This document shows, piece by piece, positions 1 through 13,630 of a DNA stretch of 39,971 nucleotides. Below the pieces are notes generated by a model. That model saw only the letters and a program-made list of their open reading frames with translations, made no database searches and was not told the DNA's origin. The stretch is from positions 1 to 39,971 of the IMG/VR virus record IMGVR_UViG_3300049927_000070; one strand, written 5' to 3'. Within the stretch, counting starts at the first letter, position 1. Each line of letters opens with the position of its first letter. Position numbers and translations under genes: made by a program. This DNA comes from a virus (taxonomy: Duplodnaviria; Caudoviricetes).

Positions 1-3000
1 CCCTTTTTCCCATAGGTCGCAGTCTTGATCAGCCCGGACGCTGTCTTGTACTTGGCCTTGTTTTCGCCGTCTAGCTTTACAGCTATCAGGCCTGTATCGG
101 TGATGGATGAGATGGTCCCGGACGCACCCTTGTAGTCGATCTTGTCGCCTTCGTAGACGATTTCACCGGTCTTGGAGTAGAAGAACTTCGAGCCGGAGGT
201 GGGGGCGCTGATTGTTGCGGTAGTGTTTGCAGAAATACCGTCAGACATGTATGGCGCGTCGTTTGTCTCCTTCCCGTTCTTGAACAGCTTCCATGTGGCA
301 TCCGGCTGCTTGACATAGTAGAACGCCGAAGAGCCGTAGGCGGACTCCTTCTTCATTGAGGTACCGGCAGGCTGGGCGTCAAGGAGCTCCTTGGAGATCG
401 TGTGGCCGGTGGTCACTCCTGTAAGCGATGGTGTACCGGTTTCTTCCGGGGATGCGGGAACAGATGACTCTGTTACGGTGTACTTGTCAGACAGGGACGC
501 CGGAACATTATCGAAAGCCGAATCCTCCTTGACCATTGGATCCAGTGCCCCGGTGTCCTTAGTCATTTTCTGCCAAGAGTTTGGCGCGGTCTTCTTGTAA
601 ACATGGTTACCGTTATGGAGCTCGGTACCGACAGGCAGCGCGGAGACGCCATCGCCCTTCATGACGTCGGTCAGCGTCTTTCCGATATATGAGGGAGACG
701 CTGTCTCGGCTGGAGTTACCGGGTGGTCACCCACCTTGCCGAGAACGTATGGGTCAAGGGCGTGGTCTTCCAGAGACGTGAAGTCTTTATCGTTGTATTC
801 CGTAAGGGCAGCAACACCGGTCGCGAGATAGATTCGGTTCCACGTGTTGTTTGCTACTTTCCTGTACGCAAACGAGTCGTCTAGCTTGCTGTGAATTTCG
901 GACCCGATGGGCAGAGAACTGAATTTGTCGGCGTGCATGACGTCAAGCAGCGGCTTGCCGGTGAGGTCGTCCGCAGCGGGTGCGTTCTCTGCGGGAAGCT
1001 CGGCCTTCAGCGGGAAGCCGTTCGACATCAGGGCAGCAATGTAGCTGGACCCAGTCGGCTCGAACCCCGTCAGTTCATCATACTCTTTGAAGGTTCCGTC
1101 TGACTGCTTGACCCAGTAAGGCTTGGAATATCCGCCGGACACCACGTGATTCGTGGTGATCTTGGTTCCGGTCGGGAAGTCCTTGAGCTCTTGTGTCGAC
1201 ATCGGCTTGAAGCCATCATCAGATTGAGTAGTCTCCGGCGCGTCAAGGAGCCCGTCAACATCCGTATCGATCAGGTGTTGAAGAGTTTTTGGTGGCAGTT
1301 GCACATGGTACGAACTTCCATCTGCCAGAGTCGATGTGCCTATTTCGTAGATCCCACCGTCAGGACCGGTCTGAGTCCACGAACCGTTATCTTTATGGAA
1401 AGAATATCCCTCAAGATTTGAGTCGGTGAGTATCGTCCCATCTGGGTAGCCGTCAAGAGTGCTTATCGAGGGGTCATGGACAATGTTCGGTTCCGCAACA
1501 GGCTCTGTCGGCATATTTGCCGCAGGCTCGTCGCTGACCGTGTAGCCTTCCGGTGCTTGGACATGGTAGTCGGACCCGTCCACGAGGGAGTTCGGGGACA
1601 GCCCTTGGTTCTGACCGGCTGGTCCCTGCTGGTCCCAGACATCGCCGTTCTTGGTGAAGGTGAACCCCTCAAGAGTAGGGTCCGTGAGTACAGTCCCGTC
1701 CGGGAGCTTGGCAAGATCTTCTTTGGTCGGGGAGTGGAGCATCGAAGGTATGGTGGCGGGGACCGTAGCCGGAGCACTCTCGTGCGTGCTCGATGCCTCG
1801 CCGGAAGTCTCCGGGAGATTGATTATCTTGTACGCCCCACCACTGTTTTGTAGTGCTTGATGGGTAGCTTCATCGGAATCCGCGAAAGCAAACGCCGGTT
1901 CACCAGTACTGGCCTTCGTCATCTGCCACTGGTTCTCGCCGATCTTCTTTTTGTAGAAGGAGGCGTCCGGACCCTTGTGTAGGGTTGTTCCGATCGGCAG
2001 CGCGGAGAGGTCTTCCTTGGTCAGTTGCGACGGACTCTTGCTAGCAAGGCTTTCAACTGGCGAGGTATTTGTAGGTGCAGATTCGTGGTCATCGTCTCCA
2101 GACGGGACGGAGACAATACTCCAGTCGTGTCCGTTCTGAGTCTGTGAGTACTCGACGGTTCCTTCGTGCATGTAAGTCCCGTTTTGTGTCTTCCACATGC
2201 CCTCGTTGTCGGCCTTGGTGAGGATGACGGTACTGCTGGCGGACTTGTTTTCGATGACAGTCCCGACCGGCAAGTCTGTGACGGCTGGCACACCAGAGTC
2301 GCCGAGAGACTTACCGACAAGGGATGCACCCTCTTCGGAGACGGGAGCGGGCTCTTGGACCGGTTCGGCGACAGGCTCGTGTACGGGCTCCGGTGCTGGT
2401 TCTTCGTGTGCCGGGGCCGGGGCCTGAGGTTCGTGGGCAGGCTCCTGCGGGGCAGCAGGGGTCTCGTTCTGTGGGGCGCTTGGTTCGCCCGGAACGTGCT
2501 TGTTTTCGGACTCAAGGGTGCTGGCCTTCTTGGGGCCGGAGGTGTGCCCGTCAGACCACTCGACCTTGACGGTCTTCTCGCCCTTGTAGATGCCCTTGAC
2601 GACACCTTTATCACCGCTGGAGTGTGTGACGGTGTCGCCGACGTGGATGAGCGAATTGTTGCTACCGACGATGAAGGCCGTGTGCGTGGCTGGATCGATG
2701 CCGTGGTCGCCTACCTTCAGGTCGGTCGGAAGGGTATCAACCTTCGGGGCATCTCCTTCGACCTTGGTGACGGCCTTGGACAGGTGGGTGGCCTTGGATC
2801 CGTCAGGATAGACAACCTTGACCGAGTTGGTGGACGGCAGGCCGATGAAGACCTTGCCGACACCCTTCTTGGGGTGGTGGATGAGGTCGTTGACTTTGAT
2901 CGTCGCGCCGTTGGCGTCGGTCTGGTCCTTACCCATGTCGGGGTAGGTGGCCTCGAAGTCCGGGTGGCTGGTCGGGGCTTCGGGTGCTACTTGCCCTTGG

Positions 3001-6000
3001 GCTGCTGGTTCTTCTTGCGGAGCGCTAGGAGTGCTTGAGTCTGTTGGTCCAGAGACGTTGTCTCCTCCGGAGTGGTCTTCTGTACCTGATCCTCCGTTCC
3101 CATGAACCTGCTCTGAATCCGCTCCTGTGGCGTGCCCTTCTGGGGATCCTTCGGTGTGGTCATTTTGTCCTCCTGTATCAAAGTTGTGTTCGGTCAGGTA
3201 GGGGGTCATGGTGACCTTCCAGCCTGTTTGTCCTGAAGTATTAGTATACTCTTCTTTGGCCGTAACTTTAAACTTGGTTCCGTGGGGCAACACAACTTCG
3301 GATTCGTTGGAGAAGCTGTGGGACCCGAGGGCGTTGTAGTCCAGCTTGTGTGCCTTGAATCCGGCAGGAAGATGGATCTCCATAAGTACGGGCGTGCGGT
3401 CCCCGTCGGAGTATGCAACCCACTCATGACCGATCTTGTCGGTTGTGGATGTTGATGTGTATCCCTTGTCGGAATAGATGCCACCGTTGACAAGATCATT
3501 GACGACTTGGTCGCGGGCATTCAGCCCACGATATACCGTGGTGTCGGCGGTCAGCGGGCTCTTGTCGAGGATCTGGTCTAGCGCCGCGATCTCGAAGGTA
3601 TGGTCGCTTGTCGCGTCCCCTCGTAGCGCGTTGTTGACGTCCAAGCTGCTGCTGATGAAGTCTGCGGCCTGCTCCTTCTCCGCAGTGTTGTATCCCGGAA
3701 AGAGGTGGTGAGGGTCATTTACGGAGGTATATCCGTAAGGATGTGTGACACCTTCGGCGAGCAGCGCCTTGTCGTGTGACGGCAATTTGTCGTAGAAGTT
3801 CTCGTCCGGAGTGTCCGGCATCGGCTTCACGATGTGGGTATCACCTACCGGCTTGAAGTCAGGCTTGTTCTTGAGCGTGCTCTGTACCATGCTCGTGGTT
3901 ATGGACATGCCGTCTTTATTGGAGTTCGGCGTAAATGTCATGAACCACTTGTTGGACTGCTTGTACAGGCTTCCGGAAGGACCGGAGAACATCGCACCGT
4001 TGGGTAGCGCCACTAGGTCAGCGTATTTGTACTCTTTCGGGGCAGCGTCCTCCGTGGGTGCCTCAACAGTGGGTGCTTCGGCTGGAGCCTCTGCCGGGGC
4101 AGGGCTCAGCTTCGCGGCGTGGGCGAGGATGTCCTCACGGCGTGCCACCAGCTTGTCCTTGAGCTCCGTGGAGGTCTTGTTGTCGAAGCCGATGGCGTCA
4201 ACGATCGCGTTGATCTTCTCGGGGGTCAGCGCCTCGACGTGCTTGGCCGAATCGGCAAGCTGCTGGTCGGTCATCTTGCCGAACAACGCCTTGGCTGTCA
4301 TGTTGCTGTGTGAGCCCAGTCCGCGCAGGGACTCCCACTCACCGACCTTGTTGCCGAACTGGTCGCCCTTGGGTTGTCCTTGGGCACGGAAGAGCAGGGC
4401 TCCGCCCGGATCAACGCGGACGGGGTTGCCGTGCTCGTCAGTGATGACGTTGTCATACCCGAGACCGGCGACATCCCAGTTGGCCAGCAGCGCGTCCATG
4501 GCGAAGCCGTCTTGAATCTTGGCCATGTACTCGGCGTCGTCTAGACGTGATTCGACGTCCTTCTGAGTACCGGACATCATCTGTGATGCAGTACCAAGTT
4601 TTCCGTTGCCGACATCGGCCAGCTTCAGGTTGGACGTCTGTATTCCAGCAGCCTTGTACAGGTCGTCGGCCAATACCTCGGAGCGGGCATGGTCGTCCGA
4701 CTGCGAAAGCTTGACATACCAGTCGTTGCCGTGCTGGTCGGTGTAGATGCCTCCGGCGTTGGAGCCCATCTGGGTTCCGGGCTTTTTTGTCCAGCCAGAG
4801 ATGTTGATAGGCTTACTTGAGTCCTCGACCTCAGACGTCGGTACAACGTCCATTCCAATAACTCTTTGGCCATTTTCGGTCGAGTCAGAGGTAATCTTGA
4901 ATTGGGTACCCGGAGGAAGAATAAACTCTTGGAGCCCCTTACTGGCATCCTTGTTTCTTACACCATTAGAGTCTATTCCTTGTACGCCTTTGGGAGCATT
5001 TATCTTATATACCGCACCGTTATTGGATTTGGAGGCATAGATGCCTGCCTGCTCCGCATTCATGGTAGTGGATACGAACCCTAGATCCGTTACGGTCTCC
5101 CCTATCTTGACGTCTCCGACAAGATGGTCTGGGTTGCCGCCACGGTAAATCGTTATGGCGTTGTTCAGGGGTTTCTGTTTTTCCAGTAGAGATTTGAGGT
5201 CTATATACTCAGACTCAGCCTTGACCGATGCATCGTTGGCTCGTAGACGACCATTTAGGTCAGTGGCACCGCTCATTACGTAATGGTCAATAGCTGAAAG
5301 TTCTGCGCTGGTTGGCGCTACTACGGTTTTTTGAGCTACCTCCATGGCCTTCTTTTCCGCAATCTTTGCGGAATCGTTGGCGTCTACATCTTCCTGATCC
5401 TTTTTGAGTTTAGCGATCAGTGCTGCGGAATCAGCGGATTTCTTGGCCTCTTCCTCCTCCATGTGCTTCTGAAGCTTGGCCAGAATATCGGTCATATCAT
5501 CTGGCTTGGGCTCGACAGGGGGCGGTGTGGACGAGGAGCCATCCTTGCGGTAAAGACCGTGGACCTGTCCGGCAACGATCGTCGGCGTACCGTGGACCGT
5601 CTTGTCGGAATTCAGCTTTTCGACAAGGATATTGATCGGGTTGACCGACATGACCTTGCCGAGGTTGTTTTCCTTGCCGTAGACGACGTGGTCGCCGGAC
5701 TTGAAGCTTTCGTTGTTCGGCTTGGACAGGTCGAAGGAGTGGCCGTGGAAGCCATCGCCGAAGGGGTTGGGGCCTGCGGTGGGTACGACAAGATTCTTGG
5801 GGCGGTAGATGGCGGCAATGTCCTTGCCCACAATGACGGACTCCTTGCCGTCCACGGAGAACCTGTTGCCCGGAACCTTCGAGCCGTCTTCAAGGGTCAG
5901 CTGCCCCTTGCCGACCCACGCACCGATGCTTCCGTCCTTGAGGACAACAACGTCGCCCTTCTTGAAGTTGGCGAGGCCGTTGATCTTGGCGAAGTTGTCG

Positions 6001-6974
6001 CCGAAGGGGTTGTCCGACGCCGGAGCCTTGTCAATATACATGTGCTCGTCCGGTGCCTTTTCAGGGGCAGGACCCATCATGTGATCAACTACATCGTTGC
6101 CCAGTTTGACGCCGTTGGTCTCGTTCGTCCACTCGTCTTCGCCGGTCTTGGTGAGCGGGATGATCGTGGAGTTGATTCCGGTGCTCTCGACCTTGGTCCC
6201 GACGGGAGATTTGGAGGCGTCGAACTTGTCCTGCGTGGTGTGGACACCCTTGACATCATCTACAAGGCCGCTCTTTGTCTCATGGCCCATGGCCTGCGAC
6301 TCATGGGTGTGGCCGTCGAGGATCGCCTGATCTAGCGTGTCGTGCTGCTTGATGGCGTAGTGCTGCGCGGACGGGAAGTGGTCCTTGCCCTTTTTGTCCG
6401 TGATGACGGCGTACTTGGGCTTACCGGTGTCCTTGTCGTGGACGACCTTCTTCACCACACCGTGGCCGGAGGTGGCGAACTTCTGGAAGTTGGCCTTGGT
6501 CGTCGGATCCTTGACGTTGTACGGGGACTTCTGGATCGAGGATGGAGTGTTTTCGTCGTGGTTCTTGATCGGGTAGACGACATCACCGGGCTTGAGGTCC
6601 GAGATCTTCGTCGTCAGCGGGGCGTTGGGGCTCTTCGAGGTGACGCCGTAGTGGGTAACCGTGTGCACGACCGTGACGCCGTGGTCGTTGATGTTGGGCG
6701 TGTTGGTGTGTCCACCCATGTGGTCAACATACTCAGGGTCAAGGTGCGCCTTGGCGTTGATGACCTCGACCTTGTTGTGCGGGACGTTGATGTGGTAGGT
6801 CTGTCCGGCGTGCTTGAACTCAACAATGATGTTGTTCCCTGCTTCGCCACGCGCGATGCCCGTGACGTCCGTACCCTCTTCGAGGGAGTGCCACTTGACG
6901 TGGGACCCCATCTTGATCCACTTACCCTTTTTGTCCCTAAGCTGGAGCTTTACGGCGGCGCTGCGATCGAACAT
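1..6974 (-). CDS. Giant polyvalent, probably virion-associated protein (at least 2324 aa, 3' end outside window): two ADP-ribosyltransferases, an atypical kinase, KOW/SH3-like and LPxGT repeat domains
   Basis: ATG at 6972-6974, 3 nt after the portal stop. Translates MFDRSAAVKLQLRDKKGKWIKMG... and the same frame still reads ...TASGLIKTATYGKK at positions 3-44. The ORF track lists no ORF closing in this frame, consistent with no stop before the edge. Confidence 0.9.
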   Translation of the reverse strand, partial: MFDRSAAVKLQLRDKKGKWIKMGSHVKWHSLEEGTDVTGIARGEAGNNIIVEFKHAGQTYHINVPHNKVEVINAKAHLDPEYVDHMGGHTNTPNINDHGVTVVHTVTHYGVTSKSPNAPLTTKISDLKPGDVVYPIKNHDENTPSSIQKSPYNVKDPTTKANFQKFATSGHGVVKKVVHDKDTGKPKYAVITDKKGKDHFPSAQHYAIKQHDTLDQAILDGHTHESQAMGHETKSGLVDDVKGVHTTQDKFDASKSPVGTKVESTGINSTIIPLTKTGEDEWTNETNGVKLGNDVVDHMMGPAPEKAPDEHMYIDKAPASDNPFGDNFAKINGLANFKKGDVVVLKDGSIGAWVGKGQLTLEDGSKVPGNRFSVDGKESVIVGKDIAAIYRPKNLVVPTAGPNPFGDGFHGHSFDLSKPNNESFKSGDHVVYGKENNLGKVMSVNPINILVEKLNSDKTVHGTPTIVAGQVHGLYRKDGSSSTPPPVEPKPDDMTDILAKLQKHMEEEEAKKSADSAALIAKLKKDQEDVDANDSAKIAEKKAMEVAQKTVVAPTSAELSAIDHYVMSGATDLNGRLRANDASVKAESEYIDLKSLLEKQKPLNNAITIYRGGNPDHLVGDVKIGETVTDLGFVSTTMNAEQAGIYASKSNNGAVYKINAPKGVQGIDSNGVRNKDASKGLQEFILPPGTQFKITSDSTENGQRVIGMDVVPTSEVEDSSKPINISGWTKKPGTQMGSNAGGIYTDQHGNDWYVKLSQSDDHARSEVLADDLYKAAGIQTSNLKLADVGNGKLGTASQMMSGTQKDVESRLDDAEYMAKIQDGFAMDALLANWDVAGLGYDNVITDEHGNPVRVDPGGALLFRAQGQPKGDQFGNKVGEWESLRGLGSHSNMTAKALFGKMTDQQLADSAKHVEALTPEKINAIVDAIGFDNKTSTELKDKLVARREDILAHAAKLSPAPAEAPAEAPTVEAPTEDAAPKEYKYADLVALPNGAMFSGPSGSLYKQSNKWFMTFTPNSNKDGMSITTSMVQSTLKNKPDFKPVGDTHIVKPMPDTPDENFYDKLPSHDKALLAEGVTHPYGYTSVNDPHHLFPGYNTAEKEQAADFISSSLDVNNALRGDATSDHTFEIAALDQILDKSPLTADTTVYRGLNARDQVVNDLVNGGIYSDKGYTSTSTTDKIGHEWVAYSDGDRTPVLMEIHLPAGFKAHKLDYNALGSHSFSNESEVVLPHGTKFKVTAKEEYTNTSGQTGWKVTMTPYLTEHNFDTGGQNDHTEGSPEGHATGADSEQVHGNGGSGTEDHSGGDNVSGPTDSSTPSAPQEEPAAQGQVAPEAPTSHPDFEATYPDMGKDQTDANGATIKVNDLIHHPKKGVGKVFIGLPSTNSVKVVYPDGSKATHLSKAVTKVEGDAPKVDTLPTDLKVGDHGIDPATHTAFIVGSNNSLIHVGDTVTHSSGDKGVVKGIYKGEKTVKVEWSDGHTSGPKKASTLESENKHVPGEPSAPQNETPAAPQEPAHEPQAPAPAHEEPAPEPVHEPVAEPVQEPAPVSEEGASLVGKSLGDSGVPAVTDLPVGTVIENKSASSTVILTKADNEGMWKTQNGTYMHEGTVEYSQTQNGHDWSIVSVPSGDDDHESAPTNTSPVESLASKSPSQLTKEDLSALPIGTTLHKGPDASFYKKKIGENQWQMTKASTGEPAFAFADSDEATHQALQNSGGAYKIINLPETSGEASSTHESAPATVPATIPSMLHSPTKEDLAKLPDGTVLTDPTLEGFTFTKNGDVWDQQGPAGQNQGLSPNSLVDGSDYHVQAPEGYTVSDEPAANMPTEPVAEPNIVHDPSISTLDGYPDGTILTDSNLEGYSFHKDNGSWTQTGPDGGIYEIGTSTLADGSSYHVQLPPKTLQHLIDTDVDGLLDAPETTQSDDGFKPMSTQELKDFPTGTKITTNHVVSGGYSKPYWVKQSDGTFKEYDELTGFEPTGSSYIAALMSNGFPLKAELPAENAPAADDLTGKPLLDVMHADKFSSLPIGSEIHSKLDDSFAYRKVANNTWNRIYLATGVAALTEYNDKDFTSLEDHALDPYVLGKVGDHPVTPAETASPSYIGKTLTDVMKGDGVSALPVGTELHNGNHVYKKTAPNSWQKMTKDTGALDPMVKEDSAFDNVPASLSDKYTVTESSVPASPEETGTPSLTGVTTGHTISKELLDAQPAGTSMKKESAYGSSAFYYVKQPDATWKLFKNGKETNDAPYMSDGISANTTATISAPTSGSKFFYSKTGEIVYEGDKIDYKGASGTISSITDTGLIAVKLDGENKAKYKTASGLIKTATYGKK
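290..2290 (-). repeat. Eight tandem protein-level repeats of about 90 aa (LPxGT...Kxxxx-W)
   Basis: LPVGTV (~2270), LPIGTT (~2000), LPDGTV (~1700), YPDGTI (~1445), FPTGTK (~1170), LPIGSE (~910), LPVGTE (~630), QPAGTS (~370). Isolated copies near 4000 and 6200. Confidence 0.8.
2987..3163 (-). CDS. Nested out-of-frame 58-aa protein directly after ART2 (candidate immunity/antitoxin)
   Basis: AGGAGG (3169-3174), 5 nt, then ATG (3163). Product MTTPKDPQKGTPQERIQSRFMGTEDQVQK...PKGK*, with mostly G/C-ending codons. The host frame here is a low-complexity G/S/D/E linker. Confidence 0.6.
   Translation of the reverse strand: MTTPKDPQKGTPQERIQSRFMGTEDQVQKTTPEETTSLDQQTQALLALRKKNQQPKGK
3200..3690 (-). 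other. ART domain 2 (VIP2-like, ExE type, likely arginine-specific) within the giant protein
   Basis: Translation: VNNALRG...TVYRGL (3522-3539)...GYTSTS...NESEVVLPHGTKFKVT (ESE at 3297-3305). Confidence 0.9.
4130..4800 (-). other. Atypical HopBF1/PI3K-PI4K-like kinase domain within the giant protein
   Basis: Translation: QMGSNAGGIY..WYVK..HARSEVLADDLY...FAMDALLANWDVAGLGYDNV...VRVDPGGALLFRAQG. This gives a Gly-rich loop, Lys, helix-C Glu, catalytic Asp/Asn and a DxG motif. Confidence 0.8.
4845..5310 (-). other. ART domain 1 (VIP2/C3-like, R-S-E class) within the giant protein
   Basis: Translation: ELSAIDHYVMSGATDLNGRLR...ITIYRG...GFVSTT...GLQEFILPPGTQFKIT. Boundaries approximate. Confidence 0.85.
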
Positions 6975-6977
6975 AGA

Positions 6978-8663
6978 CTATGGCTCCAGCAGTGTTGAAG
7001 GGGGCGGTGTACTAGTGTCTATTGTACCAGAATCTGCGGGTGTATCTGATGCTGGGGCCTCGTCGGGCGTGGCTGGAACCGGTGGTGTATCACCGCTTAG
7101 TGCATCATTGAGGGCCGCTGCGGAGCTCGGGTCGGACTGCTGAAGCTGTTCCTTGCGCAGGTCTGCCATGAGGTCCGGGATCAGGGTGGAGATCAGCTTC
7201 TCGGCCAGCGGCTCGGAGATGAGGCCCTTGGAGACGGCGAGGCGCTGGGCGATCTCAAGCTGCGTCGGAGCGTCGGAGATCGAGAAACCGTGGGCGCGTC
7301 GAAGCGCATCGGCGGAAAGGACCTGCTTGTCGAAGAGCAGCACGGAGGACTCGGACTTGGACGGCTTGGAGGTGACGGCGGACGGGTCATACCAGATGAC
7401 CGTGCGCATGATGTGCTCTTCCGGGAAGCCCAGTGCGCGGAGCGCAGGGCGAAGGAAGGCGACGGTGAGCATGTCGCAGAGCATGAGGATCATGGGCTCG
7501 ACGTGGGAGGAAAACATCGACTCCTCCACGATCTTGGCGTTGGCACCCTTGAGGTCCGCCATGCCGCCGACAATCTCCTTGGGCAGGTCGAGGCCGGAGA
7601 TGATGCGTCCCAGCACGGAGTCCATGTGCTTGGCCAGTTGCGGGTCCCATGACCGGGCGAAGCTGAAGTGCTGCATCTTCGAGCCCAGTTCCTCGGGTCC
7701 ACGGACCAAGAGGGGGACCACGGCGGACGCGCTGGAAGGGTCGCCGATGGGTGTGATCATGGCGTCGATGAACTGCTCTTCGAAGTCGTCCTGATCATCG
7801 GACGAAACGGCGTCGGGGTCGTCCGGATCCGTCATCTCGGCATCGTTGCCAGCGGCGTAGGACAGGCCGTCCGGGACGAAGAAGACACCGGCAGCGAGAC
7901 GGGACTTGGCAGCTGCCGAAGCCGTGCGGCTCATAAGCAGTAGTTCATCACAAAGATCGAGCACGCCACGGACGGAGGACTCGGCCTCGTTCGACCAGCG
8001 GGGGTGCGGACGCCAGAGGCGGGCGATGTATCCGTTGACCGGAATCTCGATATACTCGTCCTGTGTGGCGTCACGGGTGGGCTTGATGGACCAACCGCTC
8101 TTGGGGAGGGAGTTGCCTCGACCCTTTTTCTTGAGCGCGGGGGTGGCCACGATTTCATCGACGGAACGGATCTGATACTTGTCCGGTTCGCCGGTCGACC
8201 ACTTGGAGGGCTCACGAACGAGGTAGCACTCTCCGGCGACGAAGAGGTTCAGTGCGGCGTTGCGAAGGAGCCCCGCAGTCCCGCCACTGCCGGTCTCAAG
8301 GAGATAGAGCATCGAGGATGCCTTTTCCTTGTACTCGTCATCGAGGTGGTCGATGACTCCGACTCGGGCGGGGATCTGCGAGGAGTCTGCAATATATGCA
8401 GCGTAAATGTTTACACGAGAGAGGGTGTTTGCCATAATGGTGGCAGCGAACTTGATCTCACCGATGAGGTCGTAGAATTCCCACGCATCGTGCTGCCACT
8501 TGGAGATGTTGCGGCGACGGACGACGGCTTCAAGTTCGGTCGTGCTCTTGAGATCCACACGTGCCGCGCTGGCGGTAAGTGGTCGTGGCGTGTTGTACGG
8601 TACTGCGTCGAAAGGAACGTTCTCTTCAGGCGAGGACCCGCTTGGTCGTGTAAAAAGGGACAT
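6978..8663 (-). CDS. Portal protein
   Basis: 561 aa. N-terminal WQHDAWEFYDLIGEIKF and NLFVAGECYLV, RLWRPHPR, VPLLVRGP and IWYDPS motifs are typical of actinophage (cluster-B-like) portals. Confidence 0.85.
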   Translation of the reverse strand: MSLFTRPSGSSPEENVPFDAVPYNTPRPLTASAARVDLKSTTELEAVVRRRNISKWQHDAWEFYDLIGEIKFAATIMANTLSRVNIYAAYIADSSQIPARVGVIDHLDDEYKEKASSMLYLLETGSGGTAGLLRNAALNLFVAGECYLVREPSKWSTGEPDKYQIRSVDEIVATPALKKKGRGNSLPKSGWSIKPTRDATQDEYIEIPVNGYIARLWRPHPRWSNEAESSVRGVLDLCDELLLMSRTASAAAKSRLAAGVFFVPDGLSYAAGNDAEMTDPDDPDAVSSDDQDDFEEQFIDAMITPIGDPSSASAVVPLLVRGPEELGSKMQHFSFARSWDPQLAKHMDSVLGRIISGLDLPKEIVGGMADLKGANAKIVEESMFSSHVEPMILMLCDMLTVAFLRPALRALGFPEEHIMRTVIWYDPSAVTSKPSKSESSVLLFDKQVLSADALRRAHGFSISDAPTQLEIAQRLAVSKGLISEPLAEKLISTLIPDLMADLRKEQLQQSDPSSAAALNDALSGDTPPVPATPDEAPASDTPADSGTIDTSTPPPSTLLEP

Positions 8664-10894: not shown

Positions 10895-12391
10895 TTAGAT
10901 GCTTCCGTTGCGTTCGAGGATACCGGTGGTGCGCTTGACGTTGGCGCGGACATCGGCGAAGGAGTACGTCTTGAGGAACTTGCCGTTCTCCCAGACGGGC
11001 TGGATGACGGAGTTCTTGATCTGGTCGTCCGTGGCCTTCTGGATGAGGTACAGGTTTCCGTCTGCCATGTGGGCGACCGCCAATCGACCCGTGGCCGACT
11101 TCTTGGTGCCGTCGTCCGTCTTCGGGTCCTTGAAGATGTTCCGGCCTTCGCCGTTGACCTCAACGTAGGTGGCCTTGACGGCGGAGCCGAAGGTGTCGCG
11201 GGTCACCATCTGGTAGGAGTAGGATCCGATACCGGCCACCCAGTTGGTGGAGGCGAAGCCCTTGGCCTTGAGACGGGAGTTGATGTCCTCAATGCGCTCC
11301 TTGTACATACCGTCGCCGTAGATTAGGCCGATATGAGAATCTAGTTCCAGATATCCAGATTCGTTCTCAGTACCGCCGAAGGTGTCCCACAGGAGCTCGA
11401 TAGCGCCCAACTGCTCTGGGTCAGTCTCATTCCGGTATTCTCCTGCGAGGGCTGTTCCGCAGATGATGTCAGCCGGGTCGCCGGAGTCCGGGCGGATGAC
11501 TAACTTACCGTCGCGGGCCAAGATCTCGTCCTTGAGGACGGGAAGGTATTCGGTGAGTACCTTGAAGAGGTCCCACGTGTCGGCCACGATGGACAGGATC
11601 CCGGTCGGGAAGGTCTTGAGCAGGCGGCGGAAGGTCTCGATCTCGTCTTCCTTACCACCGGCACACATCACGGAGTGCTCCGTGGCAGGGACGGAGGCGG
11701 CGATCAGGCCGTTGTCCTCGCCGGGGTAGTAGTAATTGACCCACGGCACAGCCGGTACAGCGTCGGAGCCGAAGAAGGAGGTCAGGTGTGCGGCACCGGA
11801 GGATGCTGCGGCCTCGCGGTTGACCTGTCCACGGTAGGAGAAGTCGTGCAGCTGGAAGTCGACGGCACCGGGGGCACCACCAGTCTCGCGAGCGGCCTTC
11901 TCGAAGGAGCGGCGCAGAGCCCATGCAAGGGTTGCCACGGTGGACGTGTGCCAGATGCCAGCGGAGAGGTCGGACTCAAGGTAGTTGACCAGCCATGCGA
12001 AGTCCTTGTGGGTGGACTTGATCAGGATGGACGGGACGCCGATGGGGACAAGCGTACCTTCCGGGACCTGAGAGAACTGGATCGGCAGGTAGCCGAGGTC
12101 GTGCAGGTCCTCAAGCTCGGTCAGGCTGTAGCCGGGGGAGACGAAGGTCTCGGTGTTCTTCCTGAACTCCTCGATGACCGTGTCCTTGTCGGCAGCAAAG
12201 AACGCCTCGTAGGATTCGGTGAGGTCCGTGAGCCATGCCTGAAGGCCGAAGTTCACGACGTGGTTGACGCCGTCGACGCGGGACTTGCGGTTGGTGTAGT
12301 TGGACTCTACGTGCTCCAAGCCCTCGGGGTACATGTCTTTGTGAGACAATTTGTAACTATCCGTGCGGAGAAGCGGGTTAATCGTAAACAT
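10895..12391 (-). CDS. nadV: Nicotinamide phosphoribosyltransferase-family protein (probably the NARP1 Namat)
   Basis: TDSYKLSH, LHDFSYRG, SVPATEHSVM, SIVADTWD, VIRPDSGDP, LIYGDG, TRDTFGSAVKAT and KDPKTDDGTKKSATG motifs. Confidence 0.92.
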   Translation of the reverse strand: MFTINPLLRTDSYKLSHKDMYPEGLEHVESNYTNRKSRVDGVNHVVNFGLQAWLTDLTESYEAFFAADKDTVIEEFRKNTETFVSPGYSLTELEDLHDLGYLPIQFSQVPEGTLVPIGVPSILIKSTHKDFAWLVNYLESDLSAGIWHTSTVATLAWALRRSFEKAARETGGAPGAVDFQLHDFSYRGQVNREAAASSGAAHLTSFFGSDAVPAVPWVNYYYPGEDNGLIAASVPATEHSVMCAGGKEDEIETFRRLLKTFPTGILSIVADTWDLFKVLTEYLPVLKDEILARDGKLVIRPDSGDPADIICGTALAGEYRNETDPEQLGAIELLWDTFGGTENESGYLELDSHIGLIYGDGMYKERIEDINSRLKAKGFASTNWVAGIGSYSYQMVTRDTFGSAVKATYVEVNGEGRNIFKDPKTDDGTKKSATGRLAVAHMADGNLYLIQKATDDQIKNSVIQPVWENGKFLKTYSFADVRANVKRTTGILERNGSI

Positions 12392-12425
12392 TGTTCCCTT
12401 TCAATTGTCTTATGTCGTTGGTCTA

Positions 12426-12454
12426 AATGTATCTATGTATCTTTAGATTGTCAA
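12426..12454 (-). promoter_or_regulatory. SigA-type promoter for the NAMPT-like gene
   Basis: TTGACA-N17-TACATT; the spacer contains a GATACATAGATACAT repeat. Confidence 0.6.
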
Positions 12455-13350
12455 ATCGAGATACGGTCAAGCAGCGGACGGATGATGTCGATGCGCCGGA
12501 ACACGTCCCTCGACAACTGGTCGCCGAAGTCTCCGTGGTCATCCAGCAGGCGCAGCGGGGCGTAGGAGTTGGTGGTGAAGATGTTGACGAAACTCTGGGG
12601 CAGGTTCCGCAGGGCATCCTTGGAGAAGATGCCGTGCGAGACATAGAGGTCCAGCTTGACGCCTTCCGGAACGACTCCGGCCAGCCCGAGGAAGGTCCCT
12701 CCGGCGTCGCAGATGTCATCCACTATCAGAAAGTGTCCGGTCTCCGGGCGCTCGATGCTGAAGCCCGAGAGCTTGCCGGTCTCGAAGTCTCGCTGCTTCT
12801 CGGCAGTGTAGAGTGGGATCCCGAAGGCACCGGCGACGCCGGAAGCCCTGCCGTGTGCACCCTTGTCCGGGGCGATGATACCGTCGTACTTGTTCGGCAT
12901 GACGATCCCGGCATTGCGGGTGTTCAGGAGCTCTTCGGGGTAGACGACGGTGAGTATGGCGTCATCGTACTGACACATTTTCAGCTGCTCCACGATGGTC
13001 GAGGAGTGCGGGTCGTAGGTGATGACCTGATCGATCCACAGTTCGCCGATGAAGTCCGCGTAGACGTTGGCCCCGAAGGGCCTCCCTCGGTCGGCACGTG
13101 CGCCGGGGAGGTAGGGGGCGATGAGAACGGATTTGGAATTTTCGATGAGGACGTAGTTAGCCCACATGGCCAGTTCGAACAGGTCGTCGTGCATGGAGTA
13201 AGCATCGGGCTGGAAGATGGCGATCTCGACAGGTTCGAGTTCGCGCTGCTCCTCACGCTTGATGTGCTTCTCGCCTGCCGGGAAAGTGAAGCCTGAGAGG
13301 GCGGAGTTGATGATCTCGCCGTTGGACGTGCGGGCCTTGAATGTAATCAT
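12451..13350 (-). CDS. prs: Ribose-phosphate pyrophosphokinase-family protein (probably the NARP1 Adps)
   Basis: FPAGEKH, PYLPGARADR, DPHS, IAPDKGA, KQRDFETG, IVDDICDAGGTF and LYVSHGIFS motifs. Start moved to ATG 13350 because the longer start overlaps the next gene. Confidence 0.9.
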   Translation of the reverse strand: MITFKARTSNGEIINSALSGFTFPAGEKHIKREEQRELEPVEIAIFQPDAYSMHDDLFELAMWANYVLIENSKSVLIAPYLPGARADRGRPFGANVYADFIGELWIDQVITYDPHSSTIVEQLKMCQYDDAILTVVYPEELLNTRNAGIVMPNKYDGIIAPDKGAHGRASGVAGAFGIPLYTAEKQRDFETGKLSGFSIERPETGHFLIVDDICDAGGTFLGLAGVVPEGVKLDLYVSHGIFSKDALRNLPQSFVNIFTTNSYAPLRLLDDHGDFGDQLSRDVFRRIDIIRPLLDRISI

Positions 13351-13356
13351 GAAGTA

Positions 13357-13385
13357 AGCATATCCTTGTATATTTATTCTGTCAA
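13357..13385 (-). promoter_or_regulatory. Leaderless SigA-type promoter for the PRPS-like gene
   Basis: TTGACA-N17-TATGCT-N6-ATG. Confidence 0.7.
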
Positions 13386-13630
13386 AATCCGGTACGGTTT
13401 CGCGGGACGAAGTCGCATTCAAGCTTGTAGGTCTGCGCAAGAAGGTCCCCGCGACCCAGCATCATCCATATCTGGGTCGCGTGGACCAAATCGTGCGCGT
13501 TCTGGAATGCAGGGGCGAGGCGGATCTCTTCGCCTTTGCCCATGGTGTTTCCGTTGGGGGCCTTGACTACCCAGTGGTATTTGCCGTTCTTGAAGTACAC
13601 ACGGCCTTTGAGGTCTGGAGTGATAAGCAT
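13382..13630 (-). CDS. Small protein, possibly YegP/DUF1508-like
   Basis: GKYHWVVKAPNGNTMGKGE motif; preceded by TTGACA-N16-TATGAT-N6-ATG (13637-13664). Confidence 0.6.
   Translation of the reverse strand: MLITPDLKGRVYFKNGKYHWVVKAPNGNTMGKGEEIRLAPAFQNAHDLVHATQIWMMLGRGDLLAQTYKLECDFVPRNRTGF

Follow-up and report, generated by a model that had tools for sequence, protein, structure and literature searches.

In phage lambda, the gene Rz1 is embedded in Rz, and the two encode the spanin subunits. Toxin-immunity cassettes have been described in phages as well. The MuF polymorphic toxins carry a small immunity open reading frame (ORF) downstream (Jamet et al. 2017, PMC5576092), and in the Bxa-Bsi system of a Bacteroides stercoris prophage the small, non-enzymatic Bsi binds and neutralises a phage ADP-ribosyltransferase (ART), with K89 and E92 needed (PMC11699363). 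Other named viral ART toxin-antitoxin pairs use ARG, Dmd, Macro or helix-turn-helix (HTH) partners (PMC5512222, PMC9503650). Embedded phage genes and toxin-immunity cassettes are thus already known, and what appears to be new in the present locus is a candidate immunity gene nested inside a toxin-bearing virion gene. The locus lies in a stretch of 39,971 nucleotides from a tailed phage (IMG/VR record IMGVR_UViG_3300049927_000070), called the window, in which a giant multidomain gene holds an out-of-frame gene of 58 codons directly behind its ART domain ART2. We regard the encoded peptide as a candidate inhibitor of ART2.

The nested gene and its conservation

ART2 occupies 3201..3689 on the minus strand (aa ~1096-1258 of the giant protein) and carries R1149, S-T-S at 1174-1176 and E1224-x-E1226. 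It matches Pfam PF03496 (E 1e-28), PHROG 3895 and the Alt-like 802, and its R, S, S, E and E are invariant in 7 loci. The AlphaFold model (predicted local distance difference test, pLDDT, 84.6) matches the CDTa/C3/VIP2 fold with E ~1e-11. With this fold and with all of R, S-T-S and E-x-E in place, ART2 is, by sequence and model, an R-S-E (VIP2/C3/Alt-like) ADP-ribosyltransferase, with activity and toxicity predicted.

The original prediction placed the start AGGAGG-ACAAA-ATG about 40 nt after ART2 in another frame, and this was confirmed. The nested gene runs on the minus strand over 2987..3163, from the ATG at 3163 to a TAG that ends at 2987, and is read in +1 relative to the giant gene. Its ATG lies ~37 nt past the last predicted ART2 strand, so that a small ORF stands directly behind the toxin domain. 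The Shine-Dalgarno (SD) sequence AGGAGG (3169..3174, minus strand) is formed by the Thr(ACA)-Gly(GGA) codons of the host frame, that is, the frame of the giant gene, and precedes the ATG by 5 nt (ACAAA). Over the nested gene the host frame is indeed the featureless linker that had been claimed, composed of G, S, T, D, E and P. When the 92 ATGs in the giant gene were compared, the nested start was found to have the strongest SD, at -10.3 kcal/mol against -6.5 for the next and -5.6 for the giant gene's own start, and it is located in weakly folded RNA. The nested ORF is also the only out-of-frame ORF of at least 40 aa with a 5-mer SD in the giant gene.

Two features cited earlier in favour of the gene are present but carry no weight as evidence. 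The G+C contents at codon positions 1/2/3 are 0.59/0.41/0.74 in the nested frame and 0.76/0.62/0.41 in the host frame; the phage-like nested GC3 of 0.74 equals the host GC1 of 0.76 by construction. The 58 codons are open, but the nested stretch stays open in 93% of synonymous shuffles, and the giant gene has 9 longer stop-free runs in its +1 frame; the frame is open by default.

Nine contigs carry an ART2 orthologue (L001/L003, L002/L005, L004, L006, L007, L008, L009, L032 and L033) and represent 6 distinct relatives, with ART2 domains 40-63% identical; the 22 other loci of the scan hold distant ARTs and form a comparison set only. Conservation of the SD, the ATG and the nested frame in homologous phages, which the original prediction had named as a check, was found in 9/9 contigs; the +1 frame stays open for 55-70 codons, and the core R-F-x3-[PE]-[DE]-Q-[IV] is retained. 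The SD letters are ACAGGAG in 6/7 distinct loci and AAAGGAAC in L033, and the ATG stands at SD spacing in 7/7 although the flanking letters vary. Each of the 7 distinct giant genes, with 919-2459 codons covered, has exactly one SD-led out-of-frame ORF of at least 40 aa, always at this place. The joint chance of SD and ATG retention is at most 0.044 per locus. In the window the core comprises residues 15-34 of the peptide (3062..3121, minus strand), with R15, R19 and F20 invariant and with the [PE]-[DE]-Q-[IV] and P-E-E positions.

Selection was then compared by frame in 6 sequences over their ungapped core; L033, which is gapped further on, was omitted from the pairwise and pN/pS counts. Because the sequence pairs share ancestry, the pairwise, pN/pS and alignment-window values below are descriptive and are not to be read as p-values. 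For the core, the ratio of nonsynonymous to synonymous differences per site (pN/pS) amounts to 0.53 when the nested frame is read and to 1.61 for the host frame, and the order is reversed in the ART2 control (host 0.37, +1 frame 1.30). Nested identity is at least as high as host identity in 15/15 pairs, and host third-position divergence is lowest in the core, at 0.29 versus 0.56 in the ART2 C-terminus. Along a four-gene alignment, the +1 pN/pS falls below the host value in 4/107 alignment windows; two of these windows cover the core and have the lowest +1 values of all, and the remaining two, in which the frames differ little, follow immediately after the nested stop. GGA accounts for 9/13 Gly codons inside the nested stretch versus 36/197 outside (p 1.7e-4). 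The claim that the nested frame is the constrained one therefore stands. The nested frame is under purifying selection, and, judged from sequence, the 58 codons are very likely a real, functional same-strand overlapping gene.

Two artefacts were considered and rejected. A shadow ORF was suspected at first, but the start signal (the best SD of 92 ATGs) and the conservation in relatives exceed chance. An assembly frameshift is contradicted by an exact contig match together with the relatives that keep both frames; the match is one contig of run X1, which covers 2946-6606 with zero differences and, as it may be from the source sample, is not independent of the window.

The frame might also be untranslated, as the relic of a captured gene or as the shadow of a hydrophobe-free linker. 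Its default openness (P 0.75-1.0 under synonymous shuffles) would suit this, as would the departure of the window's own core from the consensus (K-T-T instead of V-F-S), and when 7 nested peptides were looked up in a collection of 15 billion proteins, 0 were present. On the other side, nested frames are skipped by gene callers, the SD and ATG are kept everywhere, and +1-frame purifying selection extends across phages as divergent in ART2 as those above. We consider an untranslated frame highly improbable.

Searches with the nested sequence gave little beyond the loci described. The window's peptide had zero profile matches in Pfam, PHROGs and NCBIfam; in PDB it matched only a repetitive designed protein, and the best value in the Atlas was 0.79. 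The single nested peptide had no match in IMG/VR, where the nested alignment and the DNA pattern returned only known loci (3 and 7 hits), and a word-indexed protein search with it retained 0/812 candidates. A global hidden Markov model (HMM) search with the nested family reached only P0029 and P0030, in which nested-family members are called as separate genes; P0031, the third match of the full HMM scan, was rejected as a repeat artefact. No ART2 relative was found in GTDB genomes, and no DNA match in cultured phages. In the literature searches made, neither a nested immunity gene in a toxin-bearing virion gene nor the motif described below was found; supplementary tables (PMC9503650, PMC5576092, PMC3482391) could name the peptide family.

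Association with ART2 and with other phage ARTs

If the nested gene is the partner of ART2, the two should be gained and lost together. From a list of 26 giant proteins, 22 were tested for the best attainable +1-frame match of their residues; P0002, P0003, P0004 and P0014 were omitted, as the profile had been built with their DNA or with near copies of them. In 15/17 ART2-bearing proteins (among which P0024 is close to the training row L009), the best +1 match of ~3000 windows lies 59-90 aa after the ExE motif. The signature is absent from the ART2-less P0005, P0006 and P0026. In P0005 and P0006, which are close relatives, 42 and 68 aa replace the 393 aa of the window that include ART2 and the nested gene. 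It is present in P0008 (~aa 1885-1935) and P0009 (~aa 1385-1430), which have no ART2 orthologue. As a further comparison, no SD-led nested ORF of at least 35 aa was found in seven large or giant genes from cultured phages that lack an ART2 orthologue. The view of the original prediction that toxin and small gene form an immunity cassette is partly supported: the signature mostly travels with ART2 and similar small genes follow terminal ARTs, but P0008 and P0009 speak against a strict link to ART2.

These two proteins bring in another partner. In both of them the signature stands right behind a kinase-like domain, and in L006-L009 it stands between ART2 and this domain, so that the target of the peptide, as antitoxin or regulator, might be this domain or a different ART within the giant protein instead of ART2. 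In the window the domain lies at 4125..4802 on the minus strand (aa ~725-950). It is common to many phages, and we take it to be kinase-like from its motifs; a library match is absent, and NCBIfam at its cut-off gave zero families. However, P0005, P0006 and P0026 retain the domain without the signature, it is ~600 aa distant in P0021, P0022 and P0025, and where it occurs in the giant genes of DSL-LC01, Phendrix, Forza (gp78), Jeremy, Mecenats66 and ST4, there is no SD-led nested ORF of at least 35 aa. The stand-alone look-alikes of the peptide sit behind ARTs. A partner other than ART2 appears very doubtful.

The look-alikes are small genes directly behind the C-terminal ARTs of unrelated phages, which carry the similar motif D-[RK]-F-x-[WYFL]-x2-G-D-[VIL]. 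The motif stretches are ADKFQYREGDIEWI in Araceli gp10, PDKFTYKEGDLKLI in Forza gp81, VDRFVLKPGDLVEV in GMA2 gp15, SDRFTFMPGDLKEV in ctl617 and EDKFTYGEGDLVVS in an unannotated ORF of S4-3, each a small gene right after a terminal ART; the nested core of L008 is ADRFTWTPDQVTFL for comparison. In GMA6 the stretch AERFAWTGDQGITV forms the N-terminus of gp14, the gene following the ART. In the Gordonia phages UBSmoodge, Hanem and ChisanaKitsune the motif is in cis and ends the ART protein behind an acidic linker. By coordinates, the motif of the Gordonia phage loci is the C-terminal tail of the ART in L061 (168-1265) and in L069 and L070 (168-1256), whereas in GMA6 (L060, 1142 onward) it opens the gene that follows.

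A weaker motif match lies near the N-terminus of the DLP6 and PhiXhv-12 ARTs. The loci L044 (330-540) and L045 (426-540) belong to large Stenotrophomonas/Xanthomonas phages and encode His-rich ARTs with K-[FY]-x-W near the N-terminus, before Glu-rich stretches; following the T4 gp21 rule, these stretches may be head-protease cut sites. The PhiXhv-12 ART matched only itself and one motif-less homologue, so that the N-terminal cis motif stands on two proteins, those of L044 and L045. In an AlphaFold2 model of the cis-motif ART P0032 (20-row alignment), residues 1-39 have pLDDT <50. DNA for DLP6-like and UBSmoodge-like proteins was looked for in IMG/VR and not found.

The ART gene and the small gene overlap in GMA2, Bacillus phage S4-3 and RP180, where the start of the small gene lies within the final codons of the ART and in its +1 frame; lengthening the ART frame would turn such an overlap into a nested gene. 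The small ORFs that overlap the ART-gene ends of Bacillus phage S4-3 (L066 ~967-1110) and Raoultella phage RP180 (L065 ~997-1100) are unannotated. Other ARTs have different small partners, for example the Cys-rich type in L010-L012 and L018. The Cys-rich small gene after terminal ARTs at L011 4397-4594 and L018 4354-4557 carries C-x-AFP-x-GIP and is a candidate immunity family.

The likeness was evaluated in both directions. Among 32 terminal-ART loci, one without a candidate, a profile of the nested sequences only was scored on 31 ORFs and on 321 control ORFs; 9/31 ORFs behind terminal ARTs exceed the 95th percentile of the controls (Fisher p 8e-5; rank test p 0.002). With the reverse profile, made from 9 stand-alone or cis motifs, the nested core ranks 1st-3rd of 1458-5637 windows in 7/7 giant genes.

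The cis fusions bear on a different reading, in which ribosomal frameshifting into the +1 frame would give a shortened giant protein that ends in ART2 and the motif as a cis tail, with the SD as frameshift stimulator. Natural C-terminal fusions exist in UBSmoodge, Hanem and ChisanaKitsune, and in GMA6 the motif has shifted to the beginning of the following gene. Nevertheless, an ATG kept at SD spacing in every distinct locus between variable flanks is not what this reading predicts, and a +1 stop ~11 codons upstream of the ATG in the window, L001, L002 and L004, and ~10 in L009 (none there in L008), leaves little room for a frameshift. We regard frameshifting as improbable.

A proposed inhibitor of ART2 and its probable origin

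From sequence comparison we propose that the nested peptide inhibits ART2, with its R-F core binding ART2 during assembly, and we put the probability of this at about 0.6. The nested product is likely a small unstructured peptide.

Several results weigh against this proposal. In P0010 and P0023 another window outscores the nested signature, which leads by only a small margin in P0017, P0021 and P0022; P0008 and P0009 have only a different ART, further upstream, and DNA for both was looked for (for P0009 in IMG/VR) and not found. No SD-led nested ORF was found behind ART1, the second ART-like domain of the giant protein. The motif has a length of only ~14 residues, and HHalign of the nested family against four Streptomyces gp10 proteins gave P 0.19, which is not significant. 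As to the profile comparison, 22/31 terminal-ART loci are below the threshold, and L031 and L064, 2 of the 9 above it, are by eye not the motif. The terminal-ART loci behind this count are related and partly chosen (L060-L068 were retrieved with the Forza ART as query), and the stand-alone profile behind the 1st-3rd ranks was picked by eye.

It is also conceivable that the gene is real and ART-linked and that its peptide has another role: it could assist folding or packaging, act as an activator, or serve as a decoy acceptor whose arginines ART2 modifies. The evidence for reality and linkage fits this equally. ExE ARTs modify arginine, and the invariant R15 and R19 would suit a decoy; fusion in cis at either ART end would suit a chaperone or adaptor. 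However, stand-alone versions often have K instead of R (Araceli, Forza, S4-3), which would be intolerable for an Arg acceptor and argues against such a role, and a small gene right behind a toxin is in the usual immunity position (PMC5576092). We consider a non-inhibitory role unlikely.

For an inhibitor of ART2, the following course of events can be envisaged. In the ancestor, a small gene would have overlapped the end of the ART gene before it, as in GMA2, S4-3 and RP180. This cassette would have been placed inside the giant gene, whose frame reads the small gene as a neutral linker. Both frames would be translated from one late mRNA, with the stronger internal SD giving an excess of peptide. 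The giant protein would be packaged in the head like T4 Alt, while the free peptide would stay unpackaged or dissociate, leaving ART2 active in the next host. In the cis-motif phages, a head-maturation protease would cut the motif off at the acidic linker.

Since small genes behind terminal ARTs carry a similar motif, as do the cis ARTs, it is likely, as far as sequence can tell, that a toxin and small-gene cassette was swallowed by the giant gene. Capture of this kind had been proposed in the original prediction, with the immunity gene surviving as an overprinted gene; capture fits, but the wording should be turned round. Since the small gene has stand-alone look-alikes and a genome-like codon pattern, it is likely the older frame, and the linker of the giant protein the newer one.

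A wider generalisation is more tentative, and we would give it slightly less than an even chance. Phages may have in common a short and so far undescribed motif for ART inhibition, D-[RK]-F-x-[WYFL]-x2-G-D-[VIL], which would occur in four settings: in a small gene that follows a terminal ART, at the beginning of the following gene, in cis as a tail or pro-peptide of the ART that can be cut off, and, in the present phage family, in an out-of-frame gene nested within the giant injected protein's own gene. Nesting would let polyvalent virion proteins take up internal toxin domains, and many giant phage genes would hide such inhibitors.

If the peptide is an inhibitor, it would explain how a lytic phage can synthesise a host-modifying ART late without self-sabotage and yet deliver it active. 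It would also indicate a route for toxin-immunity cassettes into the middle of giant proteins, where the annotated long frame is likely the newer one and the nested gene is missed by gene callers. A ~20-residue inhibitor of Alt/VIP2-like ARTs would moreover be a handle for cloning and studying phage enzymes that are otherwise toxic.

Genomic setting and comparison with known systems

The window is a linear virus record, ~22% complete, and the only listed sequencing run that contains it is a soil metagenome; no RNA data set is listed for the locus. Its gene order of phosphoribosyltransferase, nicotinate phosphoribosyltransferase, HTH, portal and giant gene is that of Arthrobacter phage Atuin genes 62-71. 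The giant gene (3..6974, minus strand) encodes at least 2324 aa, is open at the window edge, and follows directly after the portal gene (6978..8663, minus strand; PHROG 776, E 4e-89), which places it in a head-module context. Its relatives have 2100-3800 aa. In L002 (~7530-7570) the giant gene is broken at 1221 aa by an apparent frameshift, while the near-identical P0003 has 2447 aa; the break may be an assembly error.

ART1 lies at 4830..5315 on the minus strand. Pfam gives two ART stretches, and L-x-E replaces E-x-E in ART1. From this replacement, its low GC3 (0.45-0.57) and its absence in L001 and L002, ART1 is likely a recent insertion; it has no SD-led nested partner.

Five genes upstream of the giant gene, at 10895-13440 (minus strand), genes for a phosphoribosyl pyrophosphate (PRPP)-synthetase-like protein and a nicotinamide/nicotinate phosphoribosyltransferase adjoin. 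Atuin carries the same pair, which we take to resemble the phage NAD+ reconstitution pair NARP1.

Like lambda Rz1 in Rz, the nested gene is a same-strand, out-of-frame gene with its own start, wholly within its partner gene; unlike that pair, the proposed partners here are a toxin and its inhibitor, with the small gene apparently predating the frame around it. As with the MuF toxins (PMC5576092), there is a head-module gene beside the portal gene, a VIP2-like ART domain, and a small ORF right behind the toxin domain. The difference is that the ART is internal in a protein of >2300 aa and the small ORF lies wholly within the same gene in another frame. ART2 is followed by >1000 aa of the giant protein, and no MuF domain was found in a Pfam search; it is not a C-terminal toxin domain behind a MuF or other trafficking domain.

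The locus resembles Bxa-Bsi in that a phage-encoded ART has a small protein partner, which here would be its inhibitor; Bsi is a separate, longer gene accompanied by a hydrolase (BAH) (PMC11699363). With T4 Alt and the polyvalent proteins it shares an Alt/VIP2-family R-S-E ART in a multidomain protein encoded among the head genes and predicted to be packaged and injected, and the excerpts that describe those ARTs (PMC5512222, PMC9503650 section 3.7.1) name no peptide inhibitor or nested gene for them. The nested gene and ART2 would work like a toxin-immunity pair, yet one that is not a canonical member of the polymorphic or MuF toxins.

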